Below are positions 28,507 through 49,552 of a DNA stretch of 64,000 nucleotides, one piece after another (positions within the stretch are counted from its first letter, which is position 1; the number at the start of each line of letters is the position of its first letter). Where the stretch lies: positions 14,848 to 78,847 of IMG/VR virus record IMGVR_UViG_3300022200_000031, one strand, 5' to 3'. A program made the position numbers and the translations under genes. The notes beneath the pieces are model-generated. The model did not search any database. It was not told the origin of the DNA and saw nothing but the letters and a program-made list of their open reading frames with translations. Origin of the DNA: a virus.

Positions 28507-31500
28507 ATGGCAATTAAGTTTAACGTAGAGCCGTATTATGACGACTTTGAAACCGCAACAGCGGTCGATGGTTTATCTCCACAGGAGAAGTACCATCGAA
28601 TTCTTTTCCGCCCTGGGCATGCGGTTCAGGCTCGTGAGCTTACACAGATTCAGTCCATGTTGCAACATCAGGTTACCTCAATGGGTAACCACTTCTTCGA
28701 AGAAGGTTCAATGGTCATTCCTGGCCATGTGTCATTTGAAGGTAAACTCGACTATATTAAATTAAGCAGCCTTTCTGGTATTCCACAGGCAGCTAGCTAT
28801 CCTTCAACCGATGAAGGTCAGGCACAATATGAAGCTGCATTTGAAGCATTCTTTGATAATCAGGTAGGTAATGTATACACTGGTGGCACTACTGGTATTA
28901 CTGCTCGTGTTGTTAAGGTGCTCCCTGCTGAAGGCACAGATCCAGTCACAATGTATGTTAAGTATTTGTCAGCTGGTTCTAGTGGCGAAACGGTATTTGA
29001 TGATGGTGAAACTTTAACAGCAACAGCAGATAGCACGACATACACAGCTGTAGCTGCTGCTTCTGCATCTACTGGTTTTGGTTCAGCGGCATTCGTCGAG
29101 CGTGGTATCTACTACCTCAAAGGCAACTTTGTTATCGTTCAGAATGGTTCATTGATTCTTGACAAGTATGATGTAAACCCATCTTACGATGTTGGTTTGC
29201 AGATCACTGAATCAATTGTTGATTCTGCAACAGACCCATCACTGAATGATAATGCAAATGGTACTTCAAACTATGCAGCACCTGGCGCACATCGTTATCA
29301 GATTAAGTCGGAACTGGTAAAGCAAGCGGTTGGTGGTACCACTATTGAGAACTTCCTCCTCCTTATCCGAGTTGAAGAAGGTTCTATTGCACAGAAAGTT
29401 CGCACAACAGATTACAGTGTCATTGAAGAAACACTGGCACGCAGAACATTTGATGAATCTGGTAACTACACCGTTCGTCCATTTATGGTTAATGTACGCG
29501 AGCATACAGATGTCAACACCCCAGGCGATGATGCAAAACTTGCTCTTGGCATTGAACCATCAAAGGCTTATGTTCGCGGTTATGAGATTGAAACTCTTTC
29601 AACCACATACGTTAATGTAGATAAGGCTCGCGACTCCACCCTATTTGAGGCAGCATCTGTTCCAATGTTGATTGGTAACTATGTTACTATTGAAAATGTA
29701 GAAGGTATTCCTGATATCCAAACCTTTGAGCGCATGGAAATCCATTCTTCTACAGGTGGTGCGGGTGGTATTATCGGTTATGCTAGAGCTCGTTCTTATG
29801 TCTACGCTGGCTCTGGTGAGTATCGTATCTACTTGTTTGACATTCAAATGTCATCGGGGTACACTTTTGCGGAATATGCTAAGTCATTCAAACTTGCATC
29901 TACTCCAGAATTTATTGCAGATATTATCCTTGATGGTAGCGGCAAGGCTATTATTCAGGAACCAACTCGTAACACAATGGTATTTCCACTACCATTTAAT
30001 CGTGTTAAGACTTGTGACTCTCAGCCAGATGGTGTTGCAGATGATTTCAATTATGTTTATTTCTGCAACCGTTATCTTGGTTCATCTCCTGTATCATCAG
30101 GTGAAGCAGTGTTCGCAACAGTTGGCTCTAATGAGCTGCTGGAACCATTTGATGATGAGAACTGGATTCTTACTGTAGCATCTGGTGCAAACAGTGGTGA
30201 TATTGTACCTCTTTCAACTGGCAGTGTTACAATTGCAACCAATTCCGAATCAGTAACCATCTCAGGCCTTGGTGCTTACGAAGGTAATAATGTTAAACTG
30301 ATTGCTGGTGTCAAGCGTACATTGAACCAGAAAGCTAAATCATTGACCACATCTGGTAACGACAACATTCATCTATTCTCAATTGCATCTCCTACAGGTG
30401 ATGATCAATTGGGCTTTGCAGATGGCTACAAACTTCATGCAGTTTATATGTCTGCAAATATGTCTACTCCAGCAACGGTTAATGATGATGATGTGTCAGA
30501 GTACTACGACTTTGACAACGGTCAGAGAGACAACTTCTATGACCTGGCGCGCCTGAAGCTCAAACCAACAACAGCGTTCCGTCCTACCGGCCAGCTGCTT
30601 GTTAAGTATGAATACTACACACATGGTGGTGGTGACTTCTTTACTATTGATTCGTATGACAACTTGGAAGATTCAACTGGTCATACTGTTTCATATGAAG
30701 ACATCCCAGCATTCGTATCAAAGTCTACTGGCCAGTCCATCGAACTGCGTTCAGCAATTGACTTCCGTCCTCGCGTATCTAATGCGGGTAATAACTTTAC
30801 CGGTACTGGTGCTCAGGTTTCTGTATGCCCAGAACCACTAACTACCTTCACAACCGATGTACAGTATTATCTGAACCGTATTGATAAGGTGTACATTGAT
30901 AAGGATGGTAACTTTGGTGTTGTTAAGGGTGTTCCAGCTGTTGAGCCAGAACTACCAGATGATCCAAAGGATGCAATGGTTCTCTATCATGTATTTGTTC
31001 CTGCATATACACTGACTCCAGAAGAAGTTGTGATCGATATGATCGACAACAAGCGTTACACAATGCGTGATATTGGTAAGCTGGAAAAGAGAATTAATAC
31101 CCTTGAGTATTACACATCCCTTTCTCTCCTTGAGAAGGAAGCTGCTGACAAGCAGATTGTGGATCCAACTACTCAGGTACAGAGACTGAAGGCTGGCTTC
31201 CTTGTAGATTCATTTGCATCTCACAACGTTGGTAATGTAACCAGCCCAGAGTATAGATGCTCAATTGATCGCGCTAATCGCAGATTGCGTCCTTCATTCT
31301 CCGAAGACAATGTACGCCTTCTGTACAACTCCACACTCTCTTCCAACGTCCAGAAGACAGGTGATCTGATTACCCTACCATACACTGAAACTCCTCTGTT
31401 CTATCAGAGTCAGGCGTCTGGTCAAATCAATGTAAACCCATTTGATGTATTCTCATGGGGCGGTACTGTTGAACTCTCCCCCACATCAGATGAATGGAAA

Positions 31501-33912
31501 GATACAACTCGCCGCCCAGCAGTTGTTGTGGACCAGGAAGGTGTATACGATGCAATGCTTGGTATCATTAACGAGACTGATGCGTTGGGTACTGTATGGG
31601 GGGAATGGCAGACTAACTGGACCGGTGTAAGTATTAGTACATCTACACAAGCGTTTGGTAATGGTTCACGTCGTGGTTGGGGTAACCGTATCCAAACTAC
31701 TACTACAACCACTACTACCACAGGCCAATCACGTCAGGGTATTGAAACCTCTGTTGTACCTGATACAATCAACACCAATATTGGTGATCGTGTAGTTGAG
31801 GTCAACTTTGCACCATTCATTCGCTCTCGTCTGGTTAGCTTCAAGGCAACACGTCTGAAGCCTAACACTGAAATGTTTGCGTTCTTTGATGGTGTGGCTG
31901 TTACTCCATTTGTTCGTCAGGAATCTACATTTACAAAGTATACAGATGGAGACAATCCAACCGTAAATGGTAAGAACCTCCTTACTGCGCACCCAGATGG
32001 TGCTACAACTCTAACCACTAATGCAGCGGGTGAGTTGATTGGTTCGTTCTTCATTCCTAATAGTGACGCACTAAACTTTAAGACTGGTACACGTATCTTC
32101 CGTCTATGCGATGATCCATCAAACAATGAGGTCAATACTACAACATTTGCAGAAGCAGCGTACAATGCCAAAGGCCTGATTGAGACCAAAGAGAATGTAA
32201 CAATCTCTACTCGTGTTCCACTGATCGAGCGTCGTGAAGTTTCTGGTAACCGTATTATCAGTAACACACGCAACAACACTTCTGCATCATGGTATGATCC
32301 ACTTGCTCAATCATTCATGGTTGATTTGGATGGTGGTGCATTTATTACATCACTGGATCTGTTCTTCCACAAGAAGGCATCTGACATTCCTGTTACTGTA
32401 CAGATTCGTGAGATGAACCAGGGTCTGCCAACTCAGACTATCGTACCGTTTGGTGAGGTAACTCTGAACCCTGCTGACGTCAATGTGGTAGATCTTACCT
32501 CTTCAAATCCTGATCCTAATCAGGTGACTACATTCACATTCCCATCTCCTGTATACCTACAGCAAAACCAAGAATACTGTTTTGTTATTATGGCTAATAC
32601 AAATGAGTATGAAGTGTGGTATGCAGAGATTGGTGAGAATAACTATATTACCGGCGAGCGTATTTCTAAGCAGCCTTATGCTGGTGTATTGTTCAAATCA
32701 CAGAATGCTTCTACTTGGTCTCCTGATCAGAATAAGGATATCAAGTTCCGTATGAAGCGTGCTGACTTTAATATTGATAATCCTGGTACTGTGGTAATGA
32801 ATAACGGTTCTGTTCAGGAACGCAAACTGATTAAAAACCCATTTAGCACTACCAGCGGTTCTAGTCTGGTCCGTGTAGCACATCGTAACCATCACTTCTA
32901 TGAAGAAACCAACAGTATTCCTTCATATGTAACTATCAGTGGTGCTACAGATGTCAACGGTATCCCAGCGGCCACAATGAACGCAACCCACCAGGTTCAG
33001 GGTGTTGAGATGGATTCATACCTGATTGATGTTGGTGTGAATGCAACTGGTACTGGTATTGATGGTGGTACAGATGTTACTGTTACAGAGAACCAAGGTT
33101 TCAATACATTCTACACATTCCTGCAGCATCTGAATCTTCCTGGTACCAATTCCACATGGGGTGTTCGTACCTGTACTGGTATGAGTCTTGGTGCTACCAG
33201 CCCAACTCCATATGTGGTTGATTCCGCGTACACTCCTGTGATTGTTAATCAGAACTACACATTAGACGCACCAAAGGTAATTGCTTCAGATGACAACGAA
33301 CAGCAGGGTAAGTCATTCTACCTGAGAGGTTCACTTGTATCCACTAAGGATAATATCTCTCCTGTGATTGACCTTGAACGTGCATCCGTATATACGATTT
33401 CCAACAGAATTAATAACCCTGTGGGTGACAATCCAAGTACGACTGGTCCTTCCGATGCATTCATTGATGCACTTGGTAATGTATGGCCATCTGATAACAG
33501 CAATCCTAACAATGCACCTACAGGATTTAACTATGTTGCTGACTTCGGTACAGAAGCAACAACTGATGTTGGTTCGACTGCAGCGAAGTATGTTACTAAG
33601 GCTGTGTCGTTGGCAGAGTCTGCTGATGGCTTAAGAATCTTCTTAGATGTTAACAAGCCATCAAGAACTTATGTTGACTTGATGTATAAGGCAGTTAACG
33701 CAGAAGAAGAAATTGCAACTACTGATTGGACTCTTGCTACTCCTAGCGAACCAATTCCTTATGCGGACGACAACACCTACCGTGAGGTTGAATGGGAAAT
33801 TGATCCTCCTGGTGTGTTCAATGTATTCCAGCTTAAGATTGTTCTGAGAAGTAGTAATTCATCACAGATTCCAACCATTAAGGATCTGAGATCAATCGCA
33901 CTAGTACCATGA
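28507..33912 (+). CDS. Large virion structural protein (VrlC/DUF4815-like)
   Basis: PYYDDF, ILFRPG.AVQARELTQ, LARRTFDESGNY, RYTMRDIG.LE.RI..LEYY, DPLAQSF. Confidence 0.85.
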   Translation: MAIKFNVEPYYDDFETATAVDGLSPQEKYHRILFRPGHAVQARELTQIQSMLQHQVTSMGNHFFEEGSMVIPGHVSFEGKLDYIKLSSLSGIPQAASYPSTDEGQAQYEAAFEAFFDNQVGNVYTGGTTGITARVVKVLPAEGTDPVTMYVKYLSAGSSGETVFDDGETLTATADSTTYTAVAAASASTGFGSAAFVERGIYYLKGNFVIVQNGSLILDKYDVNPSYDVGLQITESIVDSATDPSLNDNANGTSNYAAPGAHRYQIKSELVKQAVGGTTIENFLLLIRVEEGSIAQKVRTTDYSVIEETLARRTFDESGNYTVRPFMVNVREHTDVNTPGDDAKLALGIEPSKAYVRGYEIETLSTTYVNVDKARDSTLFEAASVPMLIGNYVTIENVEGIPDIQTFERMEIHSSTGGAGGIIGYARARSYVYAGSGEYRIYLFDIQMSSGYTFAEYAKSFKLASTPEFIADIILDGSGKAIIQEPTRNTMVFPLPFNRVKTCDSQPDGVADDFNYVYFCNRYLGSSPVSSGEAVFATVGSNELLEPFDDENWILTVASGANSGDIVPLSTGSVTIATNSESVTISGLGAYEGNNVKLIAGVKRTLNQKAKSLTTSGNDNIHLFSIASPTGDDQLGFADGYKLHAVYMSANMSTPATVNDDDVSEYYDFDNGQRDNFYDLARLKLKPTTAFRPTGQLLVKYEYYTHGGGDFFTIDSYDNLEDSTGHTVSYEDIPAFVSKSTGQSIELRSAIDFRPRVSNAGNNFTGTGAQVSVCPEPLTTFTTDVQYYLNRIDKVYIDKDGNFGVVKGVPAVEPELPDDPKDAMVLYHVFVPAYTLTPEEVVIDMIDNKRYTMRDIGKLEKRINTLEYYTSLSLLEKEAADKQIVDPTTQVQRLKAGFLVDSFASHNVGNVTSPEYRCSIDRANRRLRPSFSEDNVRLLYNSTLSSNVQKTGDLITLPYTETPLFYQSQASGQINVNPFDVFSWGGTVELSPTSDEWKDTTRRPAVVVDQEGVYDAMLGIINETDALGTVWGEWQTNWTGVSISTSTQAFGNGSRRGWGNRIQTTTTTTTTTGQSRQGIETSVVPDTINTNIGDRVVEVNFAPFIRSRLVSFKATRLKPNTEMFAFFDGVAVTPFVRQESTFTKYTDGDNPTVNGKNLLTAHPDGATTLTTNAAGELIGSFFIPNSDALNFKTGTRIFRLCDDPSNNEVNTTTFAEAAYNAKGLIETKENVTISTRVPLIERREVSGNRIISNTRNNTSASWYDPLAQSFMVDLDGGAFITSLDLFFHKKASDIPVTVQIREMNQGLPTQTIVPFGEVTLNPADVNVVDLTSSNPDPNQVTTFTFPSPVYLQQNQEYCFVIMANTNEYEVWYAEIGENNYITGERISKQPYAGVLFKSQNASTWSPDQNKDIKFRMKRADFNIDNPGTVVMNNGSVQERKLIKNPFSTTSGSSLVRVAHRNHHFYEETNSIPSYVTISGATDVNGIPAATMNATHQVQGVEMDSYLIDVGVNATGTGIDGGTDVTVTENQGFNTFYTFLQHLNLPGTNSTWGVRTCTGMSLGATSPTPYVVDSAYTPVIVNQNYTLDAPKVIASDDNEQQGKSFYLRGSLVSTKDNISPVIDLERASVYTISNRINNPVGDNPSTTGPSDAFIDALGNVWPSDNSNPNNAPTGFNYVADFGTEATTDVGSTAAKYVTKAVSLAESADGLRIFLDVNKPSRTYVDLMYKAVNAEEEIATTDWTLATPSEPIPYADDNTYREVEWEIDPPGVFNVFQLKIVLRSSNSSQIPTIKDLRSIALVP

Positions 33913-34124
33913 TAGATCATAAGATGATCCCTGTTGAAGATCATCCAAATCTTTTCAGGGATCCAGTTACAAATGCGATTATAAATATGGATACAAGATC
34001 TGCTGCGTCTAACAGAAATGCTAGAATGAAAGCAAAGCAACGCGATGAGGACATTGAAAACCTCAAGAATGATATGGCAGAAATTAAAGAATTATTGACC
34101 CAACTTTTAGCGAGTAAGAACTAA
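33909..34124 (+). CDS. Conserved small coiled-coil protein
   Basis: VEDHPNLFRD..TNAIIN; typically follows VrlC-like genes. Confidence 0.75.
   Translation: MIDHKMIPVEDHPNLFRDPVTNAIINMDTRSAASNRNARMKAKQRDEDIENLKNDMAEIKELLTQLLASKN
33980..33987 (+). promoter_or_regulatory. T4 late promoter upstream of the tail fibre and modification cluster
   Basis: TATAAATA. Confidence 0.75.
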
Positions 34125-37039
34125 TGGCAATTGTTATCGTACCAAACACAGACACTTTTAACCAATGGCGTGTAAAGACAAACACCATTGGTTCAGGTGT
34201 TGGTGACCTTTCTACTCTGATCAATGATGCTGTTCTAACATATACAGGTCTTACTGGCCAGAATGAAGGAACATTCACTGGTACGCCTGCCACATTCACA
34301 ATTGTGAATAATCAGGGTACATATGAAGTAACCGTTACCAATGGTGGTGATGGATACGCAGTTGGTGATACTGTGTTGATCACCGGTGGCCAGATCGGTG
34401 GTGTTGATGGTGTAAATGATGCAACGATCACTGTTGCGACTGTTGACGCACTTGGAGTTGGTGAGGTACAGACTGCTACTGTAGCTGGTACAACCACCGC
34501 TAACCTCGTTGCACAGGTAAACAACCTTAGAGATGATGTGGGTGACACCAACACTGCACTACAAACTAATGCTGCTCAGGTACGCGATGCGATTAACGAA
34601 TTTGAAGAAGTATTGAGAGGTGCTGGTGCCAATAACTACACCCTCAACACAGATGCTGACAACTTGGTTGCTGCTATCAATGAGCTGGAAACAGCAGTTC
34701 GTGGCACTAATATAGATTACAACCTTGATACCACATCTAATGATTTGGTATCTGCAATCAATGAATTCCAAGCTGAGTTGGGTCTGGTAGAGAGTTTTGA
34801 TGCCACAGGCACTTCTCCTATTGCGGACGCTAATCACACAATTACGTACGTTAATATTGGATCGACGTTCGAGGCCGCTGTTAATGCACTGAAAGATAAA
34901 GTCGACTACCATTCAGATGAACTTGGTGGTAAGATGTCTGCAGACTATGATGGTCCTGAGACAAACCATATGGATGCGCTGAACGCATTGTACAATGCAT
35001 CTTCTCTTGGTACCTTGGATAATACATACGTTCGTCGTTCTGGTACTCTTGACATGACTGGTATGTTCCAGCTTCATCAGGATGGTATCACTTCAAACGC
35101 AAACAGCATGCTTCTGAAGACTGGTGCTGCTGATGTGACTGCTATTACAATCAGTGCAACAAATCAAAATGTTGGTATTGGCGGTGGTGTTGGCACACAG
35201 AAGTTAAAGGTTACTGGTGGTGTTAATGCTACCACTGGTTTCTATTATAATGGAGATGATACAGACACCCGTTATATCCGTGCTGATGTTGGCTCTGCAC
35301 AGACCCTTGAAATTGATACGACGGTTACTGCATCCATTAATCTCGATCCTGGTGCAGGTGAAACAGTAACAATTGATGGTTCAATTGTTGCTAGTGATAG
35401 CTATACTTTCCTTGAATGGTTCCAGGACACAGTTGGTGATATGTTTACCGGTAACCAGGAGTCTGGTGGTATCAGTGGTGTATACAATGATGGTACTGGC
35501 AAGATCACTCTTGCAATTGCAGATGATGGCCACAACCACGTCGTAAGTAATATTGATGATTTCGATAACGAAGTTAAGGATCGTGCTGCAGCAATGATCA
35601 CAGGTGCTACTCACTCTGGTCTTGCTACAACATACGATAATGTAAATAATCGCCTCACATTCAATGTCAATGACCCTGTTCTAACTATCTCTGGTGAAGC
35701 AACTGGTTCAGCCACAATGACTAACCTTAGTAACACCACTATTAGTGTTACCCTGGATCAGGAAGTCATTCAGGACAAAGCAGCACCATTACTGTCTAAT
35801 GGTGTTCATACTGGTCTGTCTGCTACTTATGATGATGCAAACAACCGTATCAATCTTGCATTGACTGCTGACCCAACTATTGCACTTTCTGGTGATGTAT
35901 CAGGTTCGGTAACCCTTACCAACCTTGGTACCCAGACATTTACAATTAATGCTGTAGTTGCTGATGATAGCCACAATCACGTTATTGGTAATATTGACAA
36001 CTTCACTGAAGAAGTACAAGACATTGTTGGTGCCATGGTTGCTCCAACAAACGTTGAATCTGGTATTACTGTAACATACGATGACAATACTGGTAAGTTG
36101 AACTTTGATGTTAATGATCCTACCATTACATTGAATGGGGATGTAACGGGTTCTGCTACAATGTCGAACCTTGGTTCAATGACCATCACTACTACTATCG
36201 TCAACGATTCACACACCCATGATGATCGTTACTATACAGAATCGGAAGCAGATAGTCGCTTCTTTAATGTGTCTGGTGACACTATCACTGGTAGCTGCAC
36301 TGTGCAGGGTGATATTTACCTGGGTTCAGGTGCTTCATCCTCGCTCCAACATTTCTGGGACAATAACAGTAGCACCTGGCGTACATTCCAATACGATCAG
36401 AGCAACTGGTATGTTGAAGATGATGGCGGCACAAACCGTCTGTTGGTTCATGCTGGTAACCTAGGTTCATTTACATTCCCATCTGCATCAAACGCGAACA
36501 CCCTTGATGGTATTGACTCCTCACAGTTCCTGCGTTCAGATGCAAATGACACTGCAACCGGTAACCTAACCACTTCTCACTTATATGCTAGATCCAATGG
36601 TGCATATGATCTTGGTACAGGTACAGTAAGATATCGTACAATGTATGCTGGTACATTTAACGGTACAGCAACCACCGCACAATACGCTGACTTGGCAGAG
36701 AAATACCTTGCTGATGGTGAATATGTTGCCGGTACTGTTATTGCGGTAGGTGGTGAAGCTGAAGTGACTGCCGCCACGGACGAAATTGCCCATTCAGTGA
36801 TTGGTGTTGTATCAGAGAATCCAGCATTCCGAATGAATGAAGATCTCGAGAATGGTACCTACATTGCACTGAAGGGACGTGTTCCTGTCCGCGTACAGGG
36901 AGATGTTAAGAAGGGGGACCGTTTGGTTGCCTCATCAACTCCAGGTGTAGCTGAAGCAAATAATGCTATGGGAATGTGGTCATTTGCTGTTGCCTTAACA
37001 GACAAAGTAGGGGATACTGTAGAAGCTGTTATTCTTTAA
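34124..37039 (+). CDS. Tail fibre protein with C-terminal intramolecular chaperone (peptidase G2/IMC-like)
   Basis: DTFNQWRVKTN anchor, internal repeats with HxH, LDGIDSSQFLRSD, ADLAEKY...IGVVS.NPA...GRVPVRV. Confidence 0.85.
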   Translation: MAIVIVPNTDTFNQWRVKTNTIGSGVGDLSTLINDAVLTYTGLTGQNEGTFTGTPATFTIVNNQGTYEVTVTNGGDGYAVGDTVLITGGQIGGVDGVNDATITVATVDALGVGEVQTATVAGTTTANLVAQVNNLRDDVGDTNTALQTNAAQVRDAINEFEEVLRGAGANNYTLNTDADNLVAAINELETAVRGTNIDYNLDTTSNDLVSAINEFQAELGLVESFDATGTSPIADANHTITYVNIGSTFEAAVNALKDKVDYHSDELGGKMSADYDGPETNHMDALNALYNASSLGTLDNTYVRRSGTLDMTGMFQLHQDGITSNANSMLLKTGAADVTAITISATNQNVGIGGGVGTQKLKVTGGVNATTGFYYNGDDTDTRYIRADVGSAQTLEIDTTVTASINLDPGAGETVTIDGSIVASDSYTFLEWFQDTVGDMFTGNQESGGISGVYNDGTGKITLAIADDGHNHVVSNIDDFDNEVKDRAAAMITGATHSGLATTYDNVNNRLTFNVNDPVLTISGEATGSATMTNLSNTTISVTLDQEVIQDKAAPLLSNGVHTGLSATYDDANNRINLALTADPTIALSGDVSGSVTLTNLGTQTFTINAVVADDSHNHVIGNIDNFTEEVQDIVGAMVAPTNVESGITVTYDDNTGKLNFDVNDPTITLNGDVTGSATMSNLGSMTITTTIVNDSHTHDDRYYTESEADSRFFNVSGDTITGSCTVQGDIYLGSGASSSLQHFWDNNSSTWRTFQYDQSNWYVEDDGGTNRLLVHAGNLGSFTFPSASNANTLDGIDSSQFLRSDANDTATGNLTTSHLYARSNGAYDLGTGTVRYRTMYAGTFNGTATTAQYADLAEKYLADGEYVAGTVIAVGGEAEVTAATDEIAHSVIGVVSENPAFRMNEDLENGTYIALKGRVPVRVQGDVKKGDRLVASSTPGVAEANNAMGMWSFAVALTDKVGDTVEAVIL

Positions 37040-37048
37040 GGAGCTTCT

Positions 37049-37798
37049 ATGATTGGTATTGTTGGTTATGGATTTGTGGGTAAGGCTGTCGAATACGGCT
37101 TTAGCAAAACAGATCATTTTATTGTCGACCCCCTACATTTTCCAGAACACTCTCTAGCTGATCTAGTTGAGCACAATCCCGAAGCGATCTTTGTGTGTGT
37201 TCCTACTGATGATGGGGATCAGTTTGCTACATTAACTGATACTCTTGATCAGATTGCAGGTCTAGGCTACAAGGGTATTGTAGTAGTCAAATCTACTGTT
37301 CTTCCAAAGTACCTTGAGGGGTACAATGTTGTCTACAATCCTGAGTTTCTTTCTCGCCGTACTGCATTTGAAGATTTTGTAAAACCACACGTCTTAGTGA
37401 TTGGTGGCCAGCAATCTAAAGCAAAGCGTGTATTGGAAATGTATATGAACTACTCTGATGTTCGTTGTGATAACATCTTCCTCACTTCAGTTAATGCTGC
37501 CTCAATGGTTAAATATATGTTCAACACATACTATGCAACCAAACTAACCTTCATGAATCAGATGTATGATGTGGCGCAGCAGGCTGGTGTACATTGGAAT
37601 GATATCAAACAGATTCTTGGAAAACATCCATGGGTAGGAACATATCATCTTGATGTCCCTGGTTATGAGGGGCGAGGTTTTAGTGGTCCATGTCTTCCCA
37701 AGGATACAAAAGCCCTTGCTGCTGAATATGATGTTGAATTGCTACATAAGGTGTTGGAGTTAAACGACAAATACCGAGATGAAAACTCTACTAGTTGA
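37049..37798 (+). CDS. UDP-glucose/GDP-mannose dehydrogenase family protein (short form)
   Basis: GYGFVG, KST, NPEFL and GFSGPCLPKD motifs. Confidence 0.9.
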   Translation: MIGIVGYGFVGKAVEYGFSKTDHFIVDPLHFPEHSLADLVEHNPEAIFVCVPTDDGDQFATLTDTLDQIAGLGYKGIVVVKSTVLPKYLEGYNVVYNPEFLSRRTAFEDFVKPHVLVIGGQQSKAKRVLEMYMNYSDVRCDNIFLTSVNAASMVKYMFNTYYATKLTFMNQMYDVAQQAGVHWNDIKQILGKHPWVGTYHLDVPGYEGRGFSGPCLPKDTKALAAEYDVELLHKVLELNDKYRDENSTS

Positions 37799-38783
37799 AC
37801 TTTCAGAACAATGCAATCTCGATTGCTCGTACTGTGGTGTAAACAAAAGATCAAAACAGAAAGTAAATCTTGATCATGTTCTCGAGCAGTATAGTCTCCT
37901 GCGTTCAAAATACCCCGACGAGAAAATAAAGATAGACTTCTTCGGTGGTGAACCTTTGTTGCAGCTTGATAGAATTAAGTCTATTATTGAGGCTACAGAG
38001 AACGACCCCAATCTTGAATATTTTATGCCAACTAATGGTCTTGTTTTAACACAAGAAATGGCGGATTATCTGATATCAAAGAATGTAAGAATGTCACTAT
38101 CGTTTGATGGACTCTGGCAGGACGACAACCGAAAGCAATTATCCGGTAACGGCACTCTCACCAAGTATATGGCAAAGAGTGATCTATTTAAGTCTCTCCC
38201 ACTAGAATGTCATACTATGATCACTAGGGGAAACTATAATCTTCTTGAAAACCACCTTTTTATCCAGGACTTAATCGGAAAAAATTCCGATCAAACGCTT
38301 GTCCGTGACAGAAATATATGGGATAATGACAGTGTAGATAAACTAAAGGCTGGTATCACTGAGTTGTTTGAGTGGTATAAAAGACATCCAGAAAAAGAGA
38401 TGCCGGGGTTGATTAAACATTACCTTAGCCATATAGTAAGGTATAAGTATAAGAAGGTAGAGCTGAATACCTGTGGTGCTGGTGAGAAGATGATCACCGT
38501 TGCAGACGAAGACAAGGTTCTTCCCTGCGGTAGGTTTAGAAACGAACCAGACACTATTGCTAGTATTCCTATCTACACAAAAATGTCTGAGTGTGAGACA
38601 TGCGAAGTGAGACACTACTGTAAGAAGGGGTGTCTGTATGAACAGATACACAACGGTGGACCTATTAAGGAGCTGTGTGACATCTACAAGCATATCTACT
38701 CAGAAGAATTTAATATGATCAAACAGTTGAAGAATGATCAGCACTTTGTAGGTGTATTGAAAAAGGAAATTATGGATGCTTGA
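37779..38783 (+). CDS. Radical SAM/SPASM protein 1
   Basis: CNLDCSYC, FFGGEPLL, SFDG; C-terminal C...PC...CETC...CKKGC...C. Confidence 0.92.
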   Translation: MKTLLVELSEQCNLDCSYCGVNKRSKQKVNLDHVLEQYSLLRSKYPDEKIKIDFFGGEPLLQLDRIKSIIEATENDPNLEYFMPTNGLVLTQEMADYLISKNVRMSLSFDGLWQDDNRKQLSGNGTLTKYMAKSDLFKSLPLECHTMITRGNYNLLENHLFIQDLIGKNSDQTLVRDRNIWDNDSVDKLKAGITELFEWYKRHPEKEMPGLIKHYLSHIVRYKYKKVELNTCGAGEKMITVADEDKVLPCGRFRNEPDTIASIPIYTKMSECETCEVRHYCKKGCLYEQIHNGGPIKELCDIYKHIYSEEFNMIKQLKNDQHFVGVLKKEIMDA

Positions 38784-38994
38784 TGATAAAGACAAAGCGA
38801 ATGCATCGTTGTTTAATGCTGCTGCCCATCTAACAGAGGCAGCAAAGTATATGTCTGACATGGATAAGGGGATCTCACTAAAGATCTTTGCCATGGCAGA
38901 TAAGATCCTTTCCATTATTGATGCCCCCCAACCAAAGTTATCAAATAAAGAACTGGATGATATTCTGGAGGAGATTCTAAATGCAGAAGACTAG
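38776..38994 (+). CDS. Small helical hypothetical protein
   Basis: 72 aa, overlap-coupled between the two SPASM genes. Confidence 0.65.
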   Translation: MLDDKDKANASLFNAAAHLTEAAKYMSDMDKGISLKIFAMADKILSIIDAPQPKLSNKELDDILEEILNAED

Positions 38995-40117
38995 AGGACC
39001 GCTGGTAATTGAGCTGACTACCAGTGCATTATGTGATCTGAATTGCACATATTGCTTTGAGGGTGAGAAGGTTAACAAGCAGAGGCTTGAGGACTTTGAC
39101 ACACTGTATGCTAGGATTGATGAACTAACTAGTGACCCATGGTTTAAAGAAAACTACAATGGATTCACATTCTCATTTTGGGGCGGTGAACCGACACTTA
39201 ACCACGAGTATATTGTCAAAGTAATCAATCACTTCAAGGACCATCCTGCAGTAGGTCAGTTTCATATCTACACCAATGGTTTCAACTTCAAGAATATGAG
39301 TCGAATTATTGATAATGTAGACACAACCAAACTGCATATTCAAGTTTCATATGACGGTCAAATTACTAATGATATTTTCAGATTGACGAACAAAGGAACC
39401 TCCACAACTGAACAAGTACTAAATACCTTTGACAAATTGGCCAAAAGAGGTATTGATCTTGCAATAAAGAGTACACTACCCACTACTTCTATTTTTAGTC
39501 TGTATGATACATGGCTAGAATTTGAAGGTTTGGTTAATAAATATAAGGATTACCCAAACGTAAAAATTAACTTTGCGCCAACGATTGAGTATGCTATGGG
39601 ACACACACCATTTGGTGGGGAAACGGATCATGCAGTTGCAAAGTTTGAAAAGCAGATGAAAAAGATCGCCAAAAAGGAGATCGAATTCTACAAGGAGCAT
39701 GGAAGGTTCTTGTGCTCATGGTTTGGTAGCTCTGATAGTAAGACAAACTGTACTGCTGGAGCTAGTATGATGGCAGTAGATGTGGACGGTGGAGTGTATG
39801 CTTGCCATGGTGCTCTCTACTCTCCTCAGAAGGAAGACATGAAATCAGCAACGATTTTCGATAATGATTTCACTGTTAAGGTAAAAGACTTTGCGGACAA
39901 GCATGTTCCTGCAAGGCATAGGATTAATGACATCTGTAAGGGATGTGTTGCAACATACTGTGCTGTATGCCCTGTTGCGGTATATGACGCAAGTAAGAAG
40001 GTTGACCATCTAGATAGATGGACAGATAGATGTGTGAATGGGTTGTGTAAGTTCTATAAGGCGTTTGGGCGATTAGATAGAGCTGTACAGCACCATATAA
40101 ACAACTTGGAGAAGTGA
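38981..40117 (+). CDS. Radical SAM/SPASM protein 2
   Basis: CDLNCTYC, FWGGEP, SYDG; CTAG...YACH...CKGC...CAVCP...C. Confidence 0.92.
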   Translation: MQKTRGPLVIELTTSALCDLNCTYCFEGEKVNKQRLEDFDTLYARIDELTSDPWFKENYNGFTFSFWGGEPTLNHEYIVKVINHFKDHPAVGQFHIYTNGFNFKNMSRIIDNVDTTKLHIQVSYDGQITNDIFRLTNKGTSTTEQVLNTFDKLAKRGIDLAIKSTLPTTSIFSLYDTWLEFEGLVNKYKDYPNVKINFAPTIEYAMGHTPFGGETDHAVAKFEKQMKKIAKKEIEFYKEHGRFLCSWFGSSDSKTNCTAGASMMAVDVDGGVYACHGALYSPQKEDMKSATIFDNDFTVKVKDFADKHVPARHRINDICKGCVATYCAVCPVAVYDASKKVDHLDRWTDRCVNGLCKFYKAFGRLDRAVQHHINNLEK

Positions 40118-40118
40118 T

Positions 40119-40805
40119 ATGACAGTAGGTGTAGTTGACGCTGGTGATAATTGTACAGCAGCACATTGTATCAATCATGGTACAGGTACCACCACGTGTG
40201 TTGAACACCGCAGTACATGCTCAACCAACCGTGCATTGACATTCTCTGACTTTGCTCAGGGTGGCAACATTACTGCTACCCAGGTAGAGGAAATGAGAGT
40301 CAAGATTCGTGATGAGTTGGCTAGATACAACCTTCATGCTAACTACAACTACACATTGTACCAGCCAACAGCTATTGGTGCTGGTGGTATTGTGGATGAC
40401 ACTCACTATAACAACCTGAATGATATGATCCGTCAGGCCTACGGTTCCGATATCAATAAGGCTGCGGGTCAGCTGATTGATGATGCAGATTGGGATAACT
40501 TGATCTCATACTATAATGTGGTTCGCCAAAACTGCATCTGTAACACCGACTGCTCATGTAATAATGTGTGTGCGTGCCACAATGATTGTGATTGTAACTA
40601 CAGCGATGAAAGACTGAAGGAGAATATTAAGTATCTTGGTCTGGTAAGTGATCTGAAAGTGTACAGCTTCAATTATATCTGGAACAAAGCAGAAGAGATG
40701 ATTGGTGTGATGGCTCAGGATCTCATTGGTACCAAGTATGAGGATGCTCTTCGTAAAGACATTAACGGATACTACATGGTAGATTATAGTAGGTTGCCAC
40801 TCTAA
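40119..40805 (+). CDS. Cys-rich protein with C-terminal peptidase S74 autocleaving chaperone; candidate substrate of the cluster
   Basis: CICNTDCSCNNVCACHNDCDCNY followed by SDERLKENI...YSFNY...GVMAQD...GYYMVDYS. Confidence 0.85.
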   Translation: MTVGVVDAGDNCTAAHCINHGTGTTTCVEHRSTCSTNRALTFSDFAQGGNITATQVEEMRVKIRDELARYNLHANYNYTLYQPTAIGAGGIVDDTHYNNLNDMIRQAYGSDINKAAGQLIDDADWDNLISYYNVVRQNCICNTDCSCNNVCACHNDCDCNYSDERLKENIKYLGLVSDLKVYSFNYIWNKAEEMIGVMAQDLIGTKYEDALRKDINGYYMVDYSRLPL

Positions 40806-41551
40806 TGGAAAAGACAATTACTAAAATCAATGAGGTTCTGTCTGAAAAGTTTGACAGAGGTATCTCAATCAGAGTCACCAACACTCTCAGTATTCCTCCA
40901 ATGGATGATGATAGTCAGTTCTCCATTAAATTTAAGTTTACTGTAAATGGTGCTGGGTACCGTGGATGGTATCTATCCAACACCGATCGTGCTGAGATAA
41001 ATGAATTTGTGTATGACACCCTGCACGATGATGTGTTTGTTCTGCCTAATCTAGTGGACTTTGATGGTAAGTGTTATGCCTTGGTTGGTGATGGTATGAT
41101 TACTGTTGAGCGTGAAACTAAGGTTCTTATGACCAACGATGTAGCGCCATCCTCAATTGTAGAGCTGCATGAAATGCTTGAGGACATTGATGTGTCGTCT
41201 ATTGATATGTCGGATGTATATGACAGACAGGTTGGTTACAACTTCAGTGATGAAGAATGTATGCTGATGTATACCAACATCCCTGGTAATGTTCTCAGTG
41301 ATGGTAGCGGTCGTTATACACTAATTGACTTAGATGTATTTAATATTCTCCCAACGCGTTTCAAATATTGTCCTGCATTCTCTCTTCTATGTGATAGGAT
41401 TGGTTTTAAGCAGTCTCGCCTTGAGGGATTCTGCGATAAGTATAATCTGGACCCTGAGATGTTCCTTTCCAACTACAAGCAGTTTCTTCAATTTGAGAAG
41501 GACATGGGTTCTGATGATGAAAAAATGATGGAGATTTTAACGGAGAAATAA
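40805..41551 (+). CDS. Hypothetical protein
   Basis: 248 aa, TAATG-coupled to the S74 gene. Confidence 0.7.
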   Translation: MEKTITKINEVLSEKFDRGISIRVTNTLSIPPMDDDSQFSIKFKFTVNGAGYRGWYLSNTDRAEINEFVYDTLHDDVFVLPNLVDFDGKCYALVGDGMITVERETKVLMTNDVAPSSIVELHEMLEDIDVSSIDMSDVYDRQVGYNFSDEECMLMYTNIPGNVLSDGSGRYTLIDLDVFNILPTRFKYCPAFSLLCDRIGFKQSRLEGFCDKYNLDPEMFLSNYKQFLQFEKDMGSDDEKMMEILTEK

Positions 41552-41553
41552 TT

Positions 41554-42156
41554 ATGATGGTATATGATTTAGCTATTGTGGAGGACCATGGTCACCACTA
41601 TAGAGTGATTGGTACAACAAAGAATACATTAGACCGTATGGCCGGTGAAGACTATATTAAAGTGTCATCGATGGCGTATGAAATGATTTGGCCTGCATTG
41701 CGAGATGGTAAGGAAGTAAGACTTCCTAAGGTTCTCCATACCAATGAAGTACTTCCCGGTGAAGTACAAATTATCGAACATAGTCCTGATGATGCAGATG
41801 CAGCACGCACTGCAGCACTGATCAAGGTACGCTCGCTTGTTGTCCCAGAGATGACTAAAGAGTCAGGATTCACTCTTTATAACTTCATGATGATGAATAA
41901 TGAGTTGGCAAGTGAAGGATACTTCATTACTAATAATAATCGTGAAGAAAAGTACATTGAGATCATCGAAACAGGCAATGAAAGGCTAATTGAAACCCTT
42001 GAGATGTACCTAGAAGCTAAGGATACCCTTGACCGGGCGGCCTCAATGAAAGTTCGGTTGGATAAGTTCCGTAAAGAAATCGGCCGAATGGATGCTGTAG
42101 ATGATATTAAGACGGCTACCGACAATTTCTTGGCTACATTCTATACCTCAAAGTAA
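41554..42156 (+). CDS. Hypothetical protein
   Basis: 200 aa, GGAG SD; helical C-terminal half. Confidence 0.7.
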   Translation: MMVYDLAIVEDHGHHYRVIGTTKNTLDRMAGEDYIKVSSMAYEMIWPALRDGKEVRLPKVLHTNEVLPGEVQIIEHSPDDADAARTAALIKVRSLVVPEMTKESGFTLYNFMMMNNELASEGYFITNNNREEKYIEIIETGNERLIETLEMYLEAKDTLDRAASMKVRLDKFRKEIGRMDAVDDIKTATDNFLATFYTSK

Positions 42157-42161
42157 TATGA

Positions 42162-42977
42162 ATGTCCGCTGTTGTATATCACTCAAACGATCATAAGAAG
42201 ATCAATGGTACTCTCTTCTATTGTTTTGAGTACTATGTACTGCTAAAAAGATACATTCCAGGCCTGCAGTATATCCTTCTCAATACTTCCGATGAAGATC
42301 TTCAATGGATGAAATCTATCTTTATTGAGAAGTATAACTTTGATCATGCTTATCTTAATGACATCACTAACCTAACAAGGCTTACAGATTTTGTTAGGTT
42401 GTCGGTTGATAATGTTCTAATCCTTGATATTCATACTTATAGTAGAGTAAAGGACTTTCTCGGAAAGGCTCGATCAGTTCGTGTGTATAGTAATGAGGAG
42501 CACAACTACCTGAACGCTAAACCCCATCATGTGTTCTATGGGTTCTACGACTATCAGACATTCAATAAAAAAACTAGAATCAAATTATATGCTGACATAC
42601 ACAAGAGGTTTCCTAATAAAAGAAACAAAGTGTTTGTTACGTCATTAAATGCAGACAATGATTATATTGTCAATCAGTTAGGATTAGATCCATCGAAGGT
42701 ATTTGTAAAAAATCTAAACAGTCACAATGAGAATATGTATGAACAGGTTGGTGAGATGATCTACTGGCATAGTTCACATACAGATACAAATAACCGAGCA
42801 ATAGTGGAGGCATACATCCATGATATTCCTCTGACCATACACTTCAATGGACACTATCATGATAGCATCTATGAGAGATCTAACACCATTGCTAATGGTG
42901 GTTTGCAGGAAATGTTTCTTGATCAGTCTGATATACTAATACAGGACTTCATTAATGATTGTACAAATACCAAGTAA
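42162..42977 (+). CDS. Hypothetical protein, possible glycosyltransferase-like fold
   Basis: NGTLFYCFEYY...EKYNF; C-terminal NRAIVEAY; paralogous to the next gene. Confidence 0.55.
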   Translation: MSAVVYHSNDHKKINGTLFYCFEYYVLLKRYIPGLQYILLNTSDEDLQWMKSIFIEKYNFDHAYLNDITNLTRLTDFVRLSVDNVLILDIHTYSRVKDFLGKARSVRVYSNEEHNYLNAKPHHVFYGFYDYQTFNKKTRIKLYADIHKRFPNKRNKVFVTSLNADNDYIVNQLGLDPSKVFVKNLNSHNENMYEQVGEMIYWHSSHTDTNNRAIVEAYIHDIPLTIHFNGHYHDSIYERSNTIANGGLQEMFLDQSDILIQDFINDCTNTK

Positions 42978-43854
42978 GTATGAGCTCTGCCTAACCTACT
43001 CTTGGGGTCCTATCGATCAGGGTATGTGTGGACACATATTTGAGTGTATTGAATACTACTTCATTCTGAAAGAACATTACAGTGTGTGTATATTCATTCC
43101 TGAGCCACTCAGCAAGAAGTTCATAGAGGATACTGTTAGGGACAAGTATGATTTCACAGAAGAGGAAACAACGGACCTTTTCGATAATACTATCTTTGGC
43201 AATCATCCTAAGATTCTGAAGGGAAGTAATGTACTGTTAACGGATGCTGGGTTTGGAAAGATGACTAACAGACATCTATTGTTTGATAACATCATGGCTT
43301 TTCCATGCGCCGATATGTCATTCAAACAAATGGAAGGTATTACTGTATTCCAGGATGACCGCATGTATGGTACGGATGCCAAATGCACAACCCATCACTA
43401 TGTAAAAAAGATTCTACTAGATCGTTATAAGACAATTGGTGATAGTGTTATTGATACTAACCTTGTATATGCTACTAAGAATGCAAGAGGGCTTGATGAG
43501 TCCATCTACACAGAGTTGGAGCAGTACCCAGGAAACTTTCTGCTGTTGACTAATACAGAGATTAAGGGTATACTATCCGATCGTTATACACAGGAAGAGA
43601 TGCCTGTGAAGAATCTATTTGAGAAGTTTAGTACATACATCTATACTCCTGTAGGAAAGAAGTATGATTGCAGTCCTAGATTCTTGGTAGAATGCAAGCA
43701 CTATGGTAAAAATGTTATATTCCATAACATTGACTATTGGGATGTTGATCATGGTTTGAAGTGGAGAGTCTATGACATCGAGTACGATTATGATTCACTA
43801 CTTCTTAGATCGGATGATAGTATCATAGAATTAATAGGAGACATCATTGGATAA
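42955..43854 (+). CDS. Hypothetical protein, possible glycosyltransferase-like fold
   Basis: CGHIFECIEYY...DKYDF; C-terminal DCSPRFLVECKHYGK. Confidence 0.55.
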   Translation: MIVQIPSKYELCLTYSWGPIDQGMCGHIFECIEYYFILKEHYSVCIFIPEPLSKKFIEDTVRDKYDFTEEETTDLFDNTIFGNHPKILKGSNVLLTDAGFGKMTNRHLLFDNIMAFPCADMSFKQMEGITVFQDDRMYGTDAKCTTHHYVKKILLDRYKTIGDSVIDTNLVYATKNARGLDESIYTELEQYPGNFLLLTNTEIKGILSDRYTQEEMPVKNLFEKFSTYIYTPVGKKYDCSPRFLVECKHYGKNVIFHNIDYWDVDHGLKWRVYDIEYDYDSLLLRSDDSIIELIGDIIG

Positions 43855-44449
43855 TTATTGTCTCACTGTAACATATAAATGTCAGTGGCATTGCCCATAC
43901 TGCATTACTGATACACACTCTAAGAGTATAGAGTATGATCAGGTACTAGACAACATTAAAAGGATACCCGATCGTGCTCATGTCTCCCTTAGTGGCGGAG
44001 AACCTGGTATGTTACCAACAGGAAAGATCATAGAGGTTATTAATAGACTGCGTGAGAAGCAATGTGTGGTACAGGTTAATAGCAATGGGTTGATTTTTAA
44101 AAGACCCGCTATTGTTGATATGGTGGACTTCATCTTCTACCATTGCAGTGAGAACCTGGATATTGATGATGAGGTTGTAAAGGATTACCCTGATAAGACT
44201 CAGTACATGGTAGTTGTAACAGACAACAACATTGATAAACTCAGATCATTTTTGGATAAGCATAATGATATTCATATATCAATTTATGCAGCTAAAGAGG
44301 TCCCTGTCAATGGTAAGGTTGGCGAACATCTCAGTAAAAAGAACGCTATCAGACTCGTGCGTGAGTTTAAGGATTACATCAAACCAGATGAGGTTCCACA
44401 CATCCTAAATTTCAATGAGTATACTTTGCAGACAGAACACATTAAATGA
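43847..44449 (+). CDS. Short radical SAM protein 3
   Basis: CQWHCPYC, SGGEP, NSNG; TTG start after AGGAG. Confidence 0.88.
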   Translation: MDNYCLTVTYKCQWHCPYCITDTHSKSIEYDQVLDNIKRIPDRAHVSLSGGEPGMLPTGKIIEVINRLREKQCVVQVNSNGLIFKRPAIVDMVDFIFYHCSENLDIDDEVVKDYPDKTQYMVVVTDNNIDKLRSFLDKHNDIHISIYAAKEVPVNGKVGEHLSKKNAIRLVREFKDYIKPDEVPHILNFNEYTLQTEHIK

Positions 44450-45450
44450 TTAATAATTATACATTTCCTTTAATTGATAAAGATGAACCTATATGTCAGC
44501 GCGCTAAACTTGACACAGGGACTTTCTGTAATTATGAGTGTTCTTTTTGTTACTATATTGATCGCCTGCATGAGAAGACAGATCTGGATGTGGTAAAACA
44601 GCGTGTGGATTATATCTATGAATGTGGTATCCGCGAAGTAGATCTTAGTGGGGGTGAATCTTCTGTCCGTACTGATTGGTTTGAGCTGCTGGACTATTGT
44701 AAGTCAAAGGAAATGTCAGTCAGTACGGTGACTAACGGATACAAGTTTGCTGACCATGATTTTATGAAAAAGTCAAAGGAGCATGGATTGCAGGAGATTC
44801 TGTTTAGTGTACATGGGCCCAATAATGACATCCATGATCTTGTAGTTGGAAGAAAAGGAGCATTTAAGCGAATCATTAAAGCAATTGAGAATGCCCATGA
44901 TCTAGGAATACTGGTTCGTATCAATTATGTTGTTAATCAACATAGCTACAGTCTAACAGATGAGTTTGTGTGCATGGTTGATCAGGTGAAGCCATATGAA
45001 CTGAACTTTCTCACACTAAACTTCTTTGGTTCCGCTAACGAGTATCTACCATACAAACTGTCTACTACTCATATCAAACACTGCATTGATATTGTTGACG
45101 TTCCTATTATTAATGTAAGGTATGTACCATATTGCTATATGGAAGGGTACGAGAAGTATGTCTGCAACACGTTCCAGCATATCTATGACAGATACGATTG
45201 GAATATGGCAGTGTATGATCAAAGAATAGATCCGGAAGTGTATAAAAAAGATCCTCTGGATGCATTATATAAGCAAGCGCAGGAAGACCGTAAGCGCATG
45301 TACTATAAACCAGAACAATGCAAGGGATGTAAGCATCTCCTAATATGTGATGGGTTGGAGAATGTAGTTCATGATGATGTAATGCCAACAGAAGGACCAG
45401 TGGTGAAGGAGATCAATCACTACAGGAAGGAATACTATGCCAAAGTATAG
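44446..45450 (+). CDS. Radical SAM protein 4 with C-terminal CxxC-x4-CDG
   Basis: CNYECSFC, SGGE, TNG, FSVHG; PYC...CKGCKHLLICDG. Confidence 0.9.
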   Translation: MINNYTFPLIDKDEPICQRAKLDTGTFCNYECSFCYYIDRLHEKTDLDVVKQRVDYIYECGIREVDLSGGESSVRTDWFELLDYCKSKEMSVSTVTNGYKFADHDFMKKSKEHGLQEILFSVHGPNNDIHDLVVGRKGAFKRIIKAIENAHDLGILVRINYVVNQHSYSLTDEFVCMVDQVKPYELNFLTLNFFGSANEYLPYKLSTTHIKHCIDIVDVPIINVRYVPYCYMEGYEKYVCNTFQHIYDRYDWNMAVYDQRIDPEVYKKDPLDALYKQAQEDRKRMYYKPEQCKGCKHLLICDGLENVVHDDVMPTEGPVVKEINHYRKEYYAKV

Positions 45451-46063
45451 TATTCTAATTCCCACTCATAATAGACCTGAACTGTTTCAGAGATGTATTG
45501 CCAGTGTACAGAGAGGTATGCTTGGTGCTGACTACGAGATTATAGTTAATAATGATTCACGAGATATTGAGGAAGTAGAAAGATATAACATTAAGTACTA
45601 CTACATGCGCAATGATAATCTTGGTATGATATACAAGTTTCTATTTGATAGAGCAAACGGTGAGTATGTGTACTACATGGAAGATGATGATATTATGGAT
45701 CCAAACTTCTATGAGCGCATTAAGTTATTCAACGAGGATATTATGTTTGGCAACTATGTTCCTTTTGAATGGAATAAGTCATTCATTGAGTATATGAGAT
45801 CAAGACCACAATCATCAAAGGAAGATTTCCTGGAAACATTTGATCCACACCATTTCCAACTGTGCCAGATTATGTTTCGGAAATCTGCATTGGCAGACGC
45901 TGATTTTCCTACCGACAACAACCTACAGAATGATTTCCTTTTATTTGAGAGACTGCAGGGTTCGTTTAGAGTAGTAAACAACTTCTTCTATAAACAAACA
46001 ATTGATGGTGGTGATAATATTAGCTTCAGCTACCTCAATAAGGATCCAAGATGGACTTCATAA
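45437..46063 (+). CDS. GT2-family glycosyltransferase
   Basis: SILIPTHNR, EIIVNND, GEYVYYMEDDD. Confidence 0.88.
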   Translation: MPKYSILIPTHNRPELFQRCIASVQRGMLGADYEIIVNNDSRDIEEVERYNIKYYYMRNDNLGMIYKFLFDRANGEYVYYMEDDDIMDPNFYERIKLFNEDIMFGNYVPFEWNKSFIEYMRSRPQSSKEDFLETFDPHHFQLCQIMFRKSALADADFPTDNNLQNDFLLFERLQGSFRVVNNFFYKQTIDGGDNISFSYLNKDPRWTS

Positions 46064-49545: not shown

Positions 49546-49552
49546 GTAAGAT

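Follow-up and report, generated by a model that had tools for sequence, protein, structure and literature searches.

A 64,000 nt stretch of the IMG/VR virus record IMGVR_UViG_3300022200_000031 (positions 14,848 to 78,847; here called the window), part of a single 78.8-kb virus contig, raises the question of why a virus should encode two radical S-adenosylmethionine (SAM) enzymes of the SPASM type directly upstream of a cysteine-rich protein that ends in a chaperone domain of the self-cleaving type. The answer that we favour, with a probability of roughly 60 %, is that these genes form a phage-encoded maturation module, in which the two enzymes (rSAM1 and rSAM2) and a small partner modify the cysteines of the 228 aa protein to ranthionine-type thioethers, at the tip of a fibre. 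If so, one of the proteins of the phage particle is probably modified by enzymes of the phage itself. The assignment of the enzymes to this putative substrate is strongly supported by comparative genomics.

Gene anatomy of the putative maturation module

The genes and motifs at the centre of the analysis are as follows.

37779..38783, + strand: rSAM1, radical SAM/SPASM enzyme lacking an RRE (RiPP recognition element, RiPPs being peptides made by the ribosome and modified after translation); Pfam Radical_SAM, 2.6e-14; phrog_1802, 1.5e-40
37812-37835, + strand: CxxxCxxC motif of rSAM1, residues 12-19 (C12/C16/C19)
38472-38678, + strand: SPASM Cys set of rSAM1, from the orthologue alignment
38776..38994, + strand: 72 aa acidic helical protein, overlapping both neighbours; orthologues in 11 loci, including Halobacteriovorax
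38981..40117, + strand: rSAM2, RRE-less radical SAM/SPASM enzyme; Pfam Radical_SAM, 1e-11; Fer4_12, 5.8e-09
39032-39055, + strand: CxxxCxxC motif of rSAM2, residues 18-25 (C18/C22/C25)
39749-40048, + strand: SPASM Cys set of rSAM2, from the orthologue alignment
40119..40805, + strand: presumed substrate, 228 aa, with a C-terminal chaperone predicted to cleave itself; Peptidase_S74; >100 non-redundant metagenomic relatives
40152..40220, + strand: N-terminal motif of four Cys (C12, C17, C27, C34), within a stretch rich in Thr and His, from conservation
40533..40601, + strand: (CxCxxx)4 array, residues 139-161, ending at Tyr161; conservation in 101 clusters
40602..40802, + strand: intramolecular chaperone domain (Peptidase_S74) with Ser162 and Lys167; residues 162-203 match the Pfam model

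The initial annotation had described a pair of SPASM maturases around a 72 aa open reading frame (ORF), directly upstream of a Cys-rich gene, and the ORFs at 37779-38783, 38776-38994 and 38981-40117 bear this out. The set comprises rSAM1 (334 aa), the 72 aa ORF, rSAM2 (378 aa) and the 228 aa protein, all on the + strand. The second enzyme does end 1 bp before the Cys-rich gene, as claimed: its TGA stop codon occupies 40115-40117 and is followed by a single T and then by the ATG at 40119. All four genes have orthologues at 31–57 % identity, in the same order, in more than ten viral contigs, which argues that they are real genes and not chance ORFs.

Both enzymes belong to the radical SAM superfamily PF04055 (54.2 bits for rSAM1 and 45.7 bits for rSAM2, against a cut-off of 29.5). 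Invariant in the orthologues are C12/C16/C19 and G56-G57-E58 of rSAM1, and C18/C22/C25 and G68-G69-E70 of rSAM2. The SPASM signature is a seven-Cys set of the form C-x(9-17)-C ... Cx2Cx5Cx3C ... C, which holds two auxiliary 4Fe-4S clusters; both enzymes carry such a seven-Cys set and are predicted to bind auxiliary clusters. In rSAM1 the invariant C-terminal residues are C232, C250, C272, C275, C281, C285 and C300, with the canonical Cx2Cx5Cx3C core, exactly the kind of pattern noted initially (CxxC-x5-CxxxC-like). In rSAM2 seven residues are likewise invariant (C257, C275, C319, C322, C327, C330 and C356), but here the noted spacing does not hold, since the core reads Cx2Cx4Cx2C. The Pfam SPASM model (PF13186) matched six of 12 rSAM2 orthologues (best 6.8e-08), whereas the rSAM2 of the window fell below the cut-off, at E 0.058. 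The CxxxCxxC motif lies within the first 25 residues of each enzyme (residues 12-19 and 18-25), so neither can have an N-terminal RRE, in agreement with the earlier reading.

Several peptide- and protein-modifying families resemble the two enzymes. The PapB family (NF047865) was the best NCBIfam match of both, with 113.7 bits for rSAM1 (1e-32) and 87.4 bits for rSAM2 (1e-24) against a cut-off of 340, and is to be read as a resemblance only. Scores also stayed under the cut-offs of the SCIFF maturase CteB (TIGR03974; 62.5 and 47.2 bits against 425), the anaerobic sulfatase maturase (TIGR03942; 58.3 and 49.6 bits against 349) and the CXXX-repeat maturase (TIGR04115; 43.2 bits for rSAM1 and 63.6 bits for rSAM2, 2.2e-17, against 350). 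The match of rSAM2 to the anaerobic sulfatase-maturating enzyme (anSME) had an E value of 3e-13. QhpD and cyclophane-forming enzymes were also amongst the NCBIfam matches, whilst the CrpC family (TIGR04463; cut-off 525 bits) was absent from the lists of the 25 best NCBIfam families of the two enzymes. In PHROGs the enzymes fall in phrog_1802, annotated as 'radical SAM domain-containing protein'. When compared with solved structures, rSAM1 aligned to CteB (PDB 5WGG) with E 1.1e-15; the alignment begins at CteB residue 97, past the RRE of that enzyme, and spans both SPASM halves.

The 72 aa ORF invariably precedes rSAM2 or, where the repeat is a heptad, the substrate. It matched no Pfam, NCBIfam or PHROG family, and PqqD was not matched by any of 12 orthologues at E values up to 1. 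An RRE of the PqqD type would match Pfam PqqD and fold as a winged helix-turn-helix that includes a beta-sheet of three strands. The AlphaFold2 model of the 72 aa protein (pLDDT, the predicted score in the local distance difference test, 87.5) instead consists of three helices, at residues 2-27, 31-47 and 57-70, with no strands, and we conclude from this and from the missing PqqD match that the protein is not a PqqD-like RRE. Of the suggestion that the small ORF is a substrate-recognition adaptor, the conserved gene therefore stands and an element of the RRE type does not; an adaptor role is a guess.

The presumed substrate is the only Cys-dense ORF on the + strand of the 78.8-kb contig. In 101 clusters of its relatives, the eight Cys of the array, together with N142, D144, N148, D/N156 and Y161, are invariant, and N160 is kept in 99/101; five of the eight array Cys are followed by Asn or Asp at position i+3. 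The anSME-type CxPxR motif is not present in the array. In the N-terminal motif C27 never varies, and conservation reaches at least 90 % for C12 and C34. We rejected a simple link between rSAM1 and this N-terminal motif, as loci L008-L010 (related loci carry L numbers) lack the first two Cys yet retain rSAM1.

The C-terminal domain, which begins S162-D-E-R-L-K167, matches PF13884 with 31.8 bits against a cut-off of 22, and S162 and K167 are kept in 98/101 and 97/101 clusters, respectively. In MyRF, trimer assembly is followed by a cut on the N-terminal side of the Ser, made by a Ser-Lys dyad of spacing 5; the equivalent residues of endoNF are S911 and K916 (PMC8326128). As a dyad of this type cuts N-terminal of its Ser, the 228 aa protein should cleave itself before Ser162 and the mature chain should end at Tyr161. 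In an AlphaFold monomer model, the helical core (residues 40-137) is confident and the S74 domain has a pLDDT of 80-95, whilst both Cys regions are below 50; with Foldseek, nothing in the PDB matched this model at E <= 0.001. Under a strict definition of RiPPs, namely a short leader-core precursor and recognition through a PqqD-like RRE, the system falls outside the class: the substrate is 228 aa long with a folded core, the enzymes have no RRE and the 72 aa ORF is helical.

Co-occurrence of cysteine arrays and enzymes

The association between array and enzymes was examined from both sides. On the substrate side, a scan of viral contigs yielded 64 S74-type loci. Genes like rSAM1 and rSAM2 were found immediately upstream in 15/15 viral loci with a Cys array before the S74 cut site, and directly upstream in 0/47 of the analysed S74 loci without an array. 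Five of five array loci in the Halobacteriovoraceae also have radical SAM genes directly upstream, giving a total of 20/20.

On the enzyme side, 80 loci were found with the rSAM2 alignment. A Cys-dense ORF on the same strand accompanied full-length rSAM2 homologues in 39/43 cases, compared with 13/50 control loci (Fisher p ~1e-10, a value that ignores relatedness); the density criterion was applied to the same strand, as a both-strand version caught antisense artefacts in the controls. After clustering of the enzymes at 50 % identity, 26/37 clusters had a neighbour with at least seven Cys in 30 residues, and in 12 of these the Cys-dense gene begins no more than 35 nt past the end of the enzyme gene. 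Adjacency is kept despite rearrangement in L011, L028 and L089, and is common to several types of repeat: the hexad CxCNxD, the heptad CTCNCNY and, beside more distant enzymes, C-Q/E-x-x (CXXX). Ten Cys-repeat proteins taken from distant loci received no functional name when scanned against Pfam and PHROG. Together with the similarity to thioether synthases, these two-way neighbourhood tests, which span many lineages, strongly support the proposal of the initial annotation that the enzyme pair acts on the neighbouring Cys-rich protein.

Several related loci show variations on this arrangement. Two of them (L104:9804-12368 and L112:9501-11558) contain three to four tandem paralogues, each with a terminal heptad array and only some with S74, which suggests that the fibre tips are interchangeable and are served by a single maturation system. 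A heptad-type phage locus has an IscA/HesB-like Fe-S scaffold gene (L012:6194-6523) amongst its three radical SAM genes, and the encoded protein may supply clusters to the radical SAM enzymes. At L084:4873-7044 the rSAM2 homologue is 723 aa long, with extra sequence that starts directly after CxxxCxxC and looks like an intein within the cluster-binding loop.

Proposed mechanism and alternative explanations

We infer an enzyme–substrate relation, a chemistry, an order of events and a virion location for the 228 aa protein as follows. rSAM1 and rSAM2, with the 72 aa partner, would modify Cys residues of the 228 aa protein, with the (CxCxxx)4 array as the main target. The most likely products would be ranthionine-type thioethers, linking Cys sulfur to side-chain carbons of the interleaved Asn/Asp residues. 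The protein would then trimerize with the aid of its C-terminal S74 chaperone, which would cut itself off between Tyr161 and Ser162, so that the modified Cys array would become the free C-terminus, at the tip of a short virion fibre. Given its position directly before the S74 domain, the array may form a beta-helical stalk whose folding triggers cleavage. Of the possible reactions, thioether formation appears likeliest, since PapB, QhpD, the SCIFF maturase, the CXXX-repeat maturase and CteB are the closest relatives by family, and ranthionine-type links are favoured because the enzymes resemble CteB and PapB and the array interleaves Cys with invariant Asn/Asp. All family scores lie far below the cut-offs, so the reaction is deduced rather than transferred by homology.

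Several points weigh against this proposal. Neither enzyme reaches an NCBIfam equivalog cut-off, and homology cannot assign the chemistry; the array could be a metal-binding or disulfide-bonded triple beta-helix core, and the monomer model is uninformative at the array, where pLDDT is below 50. Homologues of rSAM2 in L090, L094 and L109/L110, representing four lineages, have no Cys-dense neighbour within 6 kb. As many of the loci are related, the counts of arrays and enzymes overstate their independence. Adjacency alone does not single out rSAM1 and rSAM2 either, since they travel with a whole 18-kb island that contains seven more radical SAM genes and sugar enzymes.

The most serious competitor, though one that we consider unlikely, keeps the same enzyme pair and changes the chemistry, to alpha-carbon sactionine links, anSME-like Cys oxidation, C-C links or one reaction for each enzyme. 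Family scores this far below curated cut-offs imply no specific reaction, anSME and cyclophane-forming enzymes are amongst the NCBIfam matches, and the presence of two distinct radical SAM enzymes per substrate, three in heptad loci, suggests more than one reaction. On the other hand, the best matches in both sequence and solved structure are the non-alpha thioether synthases PapB, QhpD and CteB, the invariant Asn/Asp partners of the Cys fit known or proposed ranthionine acceptor motifs, and the array has no CxPxR motif of the anSME type.

It is improbable that the array stays unmodified, as the metal or disulfide core of a trimeric stalk, whilst the radical SAM enzymes act on a sugar, a cofactor or another protein of the island. 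The fibre tips of T4 contain HxH metal sites. The C-x-C pattern before S74, with its period of 6–7 residues, would suit the inward-facing residues of a triple beta-helix stalk (PMC8326128), and the sugar enzymes and seven further radical SAM genes of the island offer other work for the enzymes. Set against these points, SPASM-type radical SAM genes adjoin the array in all 20 array loci, the adjacency holds where sugar genes are absent or elsewhere (L011, L028 and Halobacteriovorax), and both enzymes belong to the clade that modifies peptides and proteins, not to the sugar-acting twitch type. We give equally little credence to the idea that the product is a released RiPP-like effector, toxin or signal, with S74 only a self-removing follower. 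Such a product would accord with the bacterial copies, which lack S74 and lie beside housekeeping genes such as aroC, and the detection in virions described below concerns the heptad class and not the hexad family. But the gene lies within a late tail-fibre operon, directly after the long fibre gene, S74 domains typically belong to trimeric fibres and spikes, and a heptad-class relative was detected in purified virions of phage IBB_35.

Cultured Campylobacter phages and bacterial copies of the module

Over its full length, rSAM2 shares 29 % identity with a radical SAM protein encoded by the Campylobacter phages CP220, CPt10 and IBB_35 (gp136 of CP220). In CP220, gp140 (534 aa), 2.2 kb upstream of gp136, has seven heptads of the CTCDCNY type, and the 21-bp repeat that encodes them is annotated as 'Repetitive region x'; PHROGs lists putative substrates of this type as phrog_26958, function unknown. 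Timms et al. (2010) recorded 11–12 radical SAM genes and the repeat, and did not link them to each other (PMC2853527). The orthologue of gp140 in IBB_35 is gene 3-9, which has a heptad array and a listed mass of 60,318 Da (computed, 60,317 Da). Its product is amongst 38 virion proteins identified by electrospray ionization tandem mass spectrometry, with 2.6 % coverage (PMC3322345, Table S2). This places one distant, heptad-class member of the substrate class in the particle, a result that lies outside the hexad family itself.

The module also occurs in bacterial chromosomes. In Halobacteriovorax, rSAM1, the 72 aa ORF, rSAM2, the Cys protein, three further genes of the phage island (u200, u271 and u299) and rSAM4 are found beside aroC. 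The module was present in four of 61 sampled genomes of Halobacteriovoraceae, and a scan of genome contigs added one more (L067). This sporadic distribution suggests horizontal acquisition. At all five bacterial loci the Cys protein lacks S74 and terminates in ...CGCHY (four loci) or ...CGCNYG (one locus); the bacterial homologues thus stop at the predicted phage cut site, in support of a mature chain that ends at Tyr161. In Halobacteriovorax the ORF preceding rSAM1 (L066:7035-7559) aligns weakly (E 0.03) to the C-terminal domain of a 971 aa fibre protein encoded upstream of the module in the window, which hints that the bacterial island may derive from a phage fibre module.

Comparison with known systems

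The closest precedent comes from the archaeon Methanococcus voltae, in which the SPASM enzyme CrpC installs ranthionines on CrpA, a large Cys-repeat protein encoded by the adjacent gene (Dieter et al. 2026, PMC13692751). The CrpA repeats carry C-X-X-Q/D as the proposed acceptor motif, and a low-confidence prediction makes the Cys region a beta-helix; the paper does not mention phages (PMC13692751). In the phage as in M. voltae, SPASM enzymes lie beside the gene of a large Cys-repeat protein, and the invariant Asn/Asp at i+3 are comparable to C-X-X-Q/D. Unlike CrpC, which has an RRE and belongs to TIGR04463, the phage enzymes are RRE-less, paired and accompanied by a 72 aa partner, and unlike CrpA, the putative phage substrate has an S74 domain of the self-cleaving type and C-x-x-N/D hexads.

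CteB is the best match amongst solved structures, with aligned SPASM Cys, and PapB is the best NCBIfam family. PapB is reported to join Cys to Asp/Glu (PMC9413430). The phage enzymes differ from CteB/CteA and PapB/PapA in their scores below the cut-offs, in having no RRE and in their folded 228 aa substrate, in place of a leader-core peptide. rSAM2 aligns to the CXXX-repeat maturase TIGR04115 over positions 10-343 of 359, and C-Q/E-x-x repeat proteins lie beside distant phage relatives of rSAM2 in L126, L128, L129, L132 and L143. The repeat of the window differs from that system in being CxCNxx rather than CXXX.

Campylobacter phages CP220, CPt10 and IBB_35 share the combination of an rSAM2 homologue and a Cys-repeat protein, but their protein is 534 aa long, has heptads and lacks S74. 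The papers on these phages treat the radical SAM genes as metabolic and the 21-bp repeat as a curiosity (PMC2853527, PMC3322345). The chaperone domain resembles endoNF and the intramolecular chaperone auto-processing domain of MyRF in its C-terminal Ser-Lys dyad of spacing 5 and predicted cut N-terminal of the Ser, and differs from both in having an invariant, radical SAM-linked Cys array at the position of the upstream beta-helical stalk. In full-text literature searches, no paper connected the radical SAM enzymes of phages with Cys-repeat proteins of fibres. The enzymology has precedent; for the viral, RRE-less context of a self-cleaving fibre these searches yielded none.

A wider proposal, which we put forward tentatively and at slightly less than even odds, is that many tailed phages, from marine T4-like phages to the cultured phages of Campylobacter, staple Cys-repeat fibre tips with thioethers made by their own radical SAM/SPASM enzymes, and that the module is shared with a few predatory bacteria (Halobacteriovoraceae). 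Thioether formation by radical SAM/SPASM enzymes is familiar from natural products that are small peptides; for a whole protein there is the one archaeal case reported in 2026. If the proposal is true, this would be the first enzymatic cross-link of the RiPP type in a virus particle, and for virion structural biology a new kind of covalent post-translational modification. The modified tip would serve host recognition or fibre stability, and the enzymes would be RRE-independent catalysts acting on folded proteins. It would also account for the many radical SAM genes of Campylobacter and other T4-like phages, which have long been puzzling. The cultured relatives CP220 and IBB_35 make the question directly testable.

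Genomic setting of the module

PHROG matches in the contig include a gp32-type single-stranded DNA-binding protein, PhoH, a baseplate hub, a tail tube cap and baseplate wedge subunits, which identifies the contig as a T4-like myovirus; the phage is a marine one. From approximately 34.1 kb to 55 kb of the window all genes are on the + strand, with overlapping or near-zero spacers. The stretch is headed by the long tail-fibre gene, and the further features of the island discussed here are the following.

34124..37039, + strand: long tail-fibre gene, 971 aa; PHROG long tail fibre distal subunit families, E 7e-17 and 1.6e-16
37049..37798, + strand: UDP-glucose/GDP-mannose dehydrogenase-like gene; Pfam PF00984, 9.2e-16; PF03721, 1.5e-09
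41554..42156, + strand: u200, directly after the substrate in relatives; phrog_25260, function unknown
42162..43854, + strand: u271 and u299, a conserved paralogous pair kept in related loci; u299 is phrog_24441
44446..45450, + strand: rSAM4, which travels with the module; Pfam Radical_SAM, 2.1e-21

The C-terminal part of the 971 aa fibre is kept directly upstream of the module in related loci. The dehydrogenase-like gene overlaps the start of rSAM1 by 20 nt, and precedes rSAM1 in L002-L010 and L015. Two TATAAATA words, at 33980 and 55083, bracket the whole fibre-plus-modification island; we take TATAAATA to be the T4 late-promoter consensus, and its presence at both ends of the island would fit late co-transcription with the fibre gene. 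A TATAAACA word at 40096 was considered as a late promoter of the 228 aa gene and rejected, being kept in L007 alone amongst the related loci. Scans for sigma-70 promoters and terminators gave signals at shuffle level, and a DNA search of the phage collection with 37000-41600 returned no match. Upstream of the fibre gene, the window encodes a 1801 aa structural protein (28507-33912), homologues of which are split in L013, L014, L016, L017, L020 and L022; the N-terminal part of these split homologues has a terminal S74, with no Cys array and no radical SAM gene nearby.

Downstream of the Cys protein, a 248 aa ORF at 40805-41551, before u200, has no homologue in related loci and no family match, and resembles an insertion specific to this lineage, in a gene order that is otherwise fixed. 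u200 itself is found at 30–49 % identity in viral loci with full-length substrates, in L028 and in L066/L067; in L012 and L034, which are heptad loci, the match covers residues 81-184 only. An Atlas search with u200 gave weak leads only. The nearest named Atlas clusters of u299 are the glycosyltransferase (GT) families GT1/GT4, with a score of 0.90, so that u271 and u299 are possibly glycosyltransferase-like, a lead only.

rSAM4 has homologues at 39–55 % identity in every related locus, including Halobacteriovorax. The region 43847-51308 contains seven further radical SAM genes and a GT2 gene, and is followed, up to approximately 54.6 kb, by a split transketolase, two short-chain dehydrogenases/reductases and a PIG-L deacetylase. 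rSAM4 and copies of rSAM3 accompany the module in relatives, whilst the remaining downstream genes vary.

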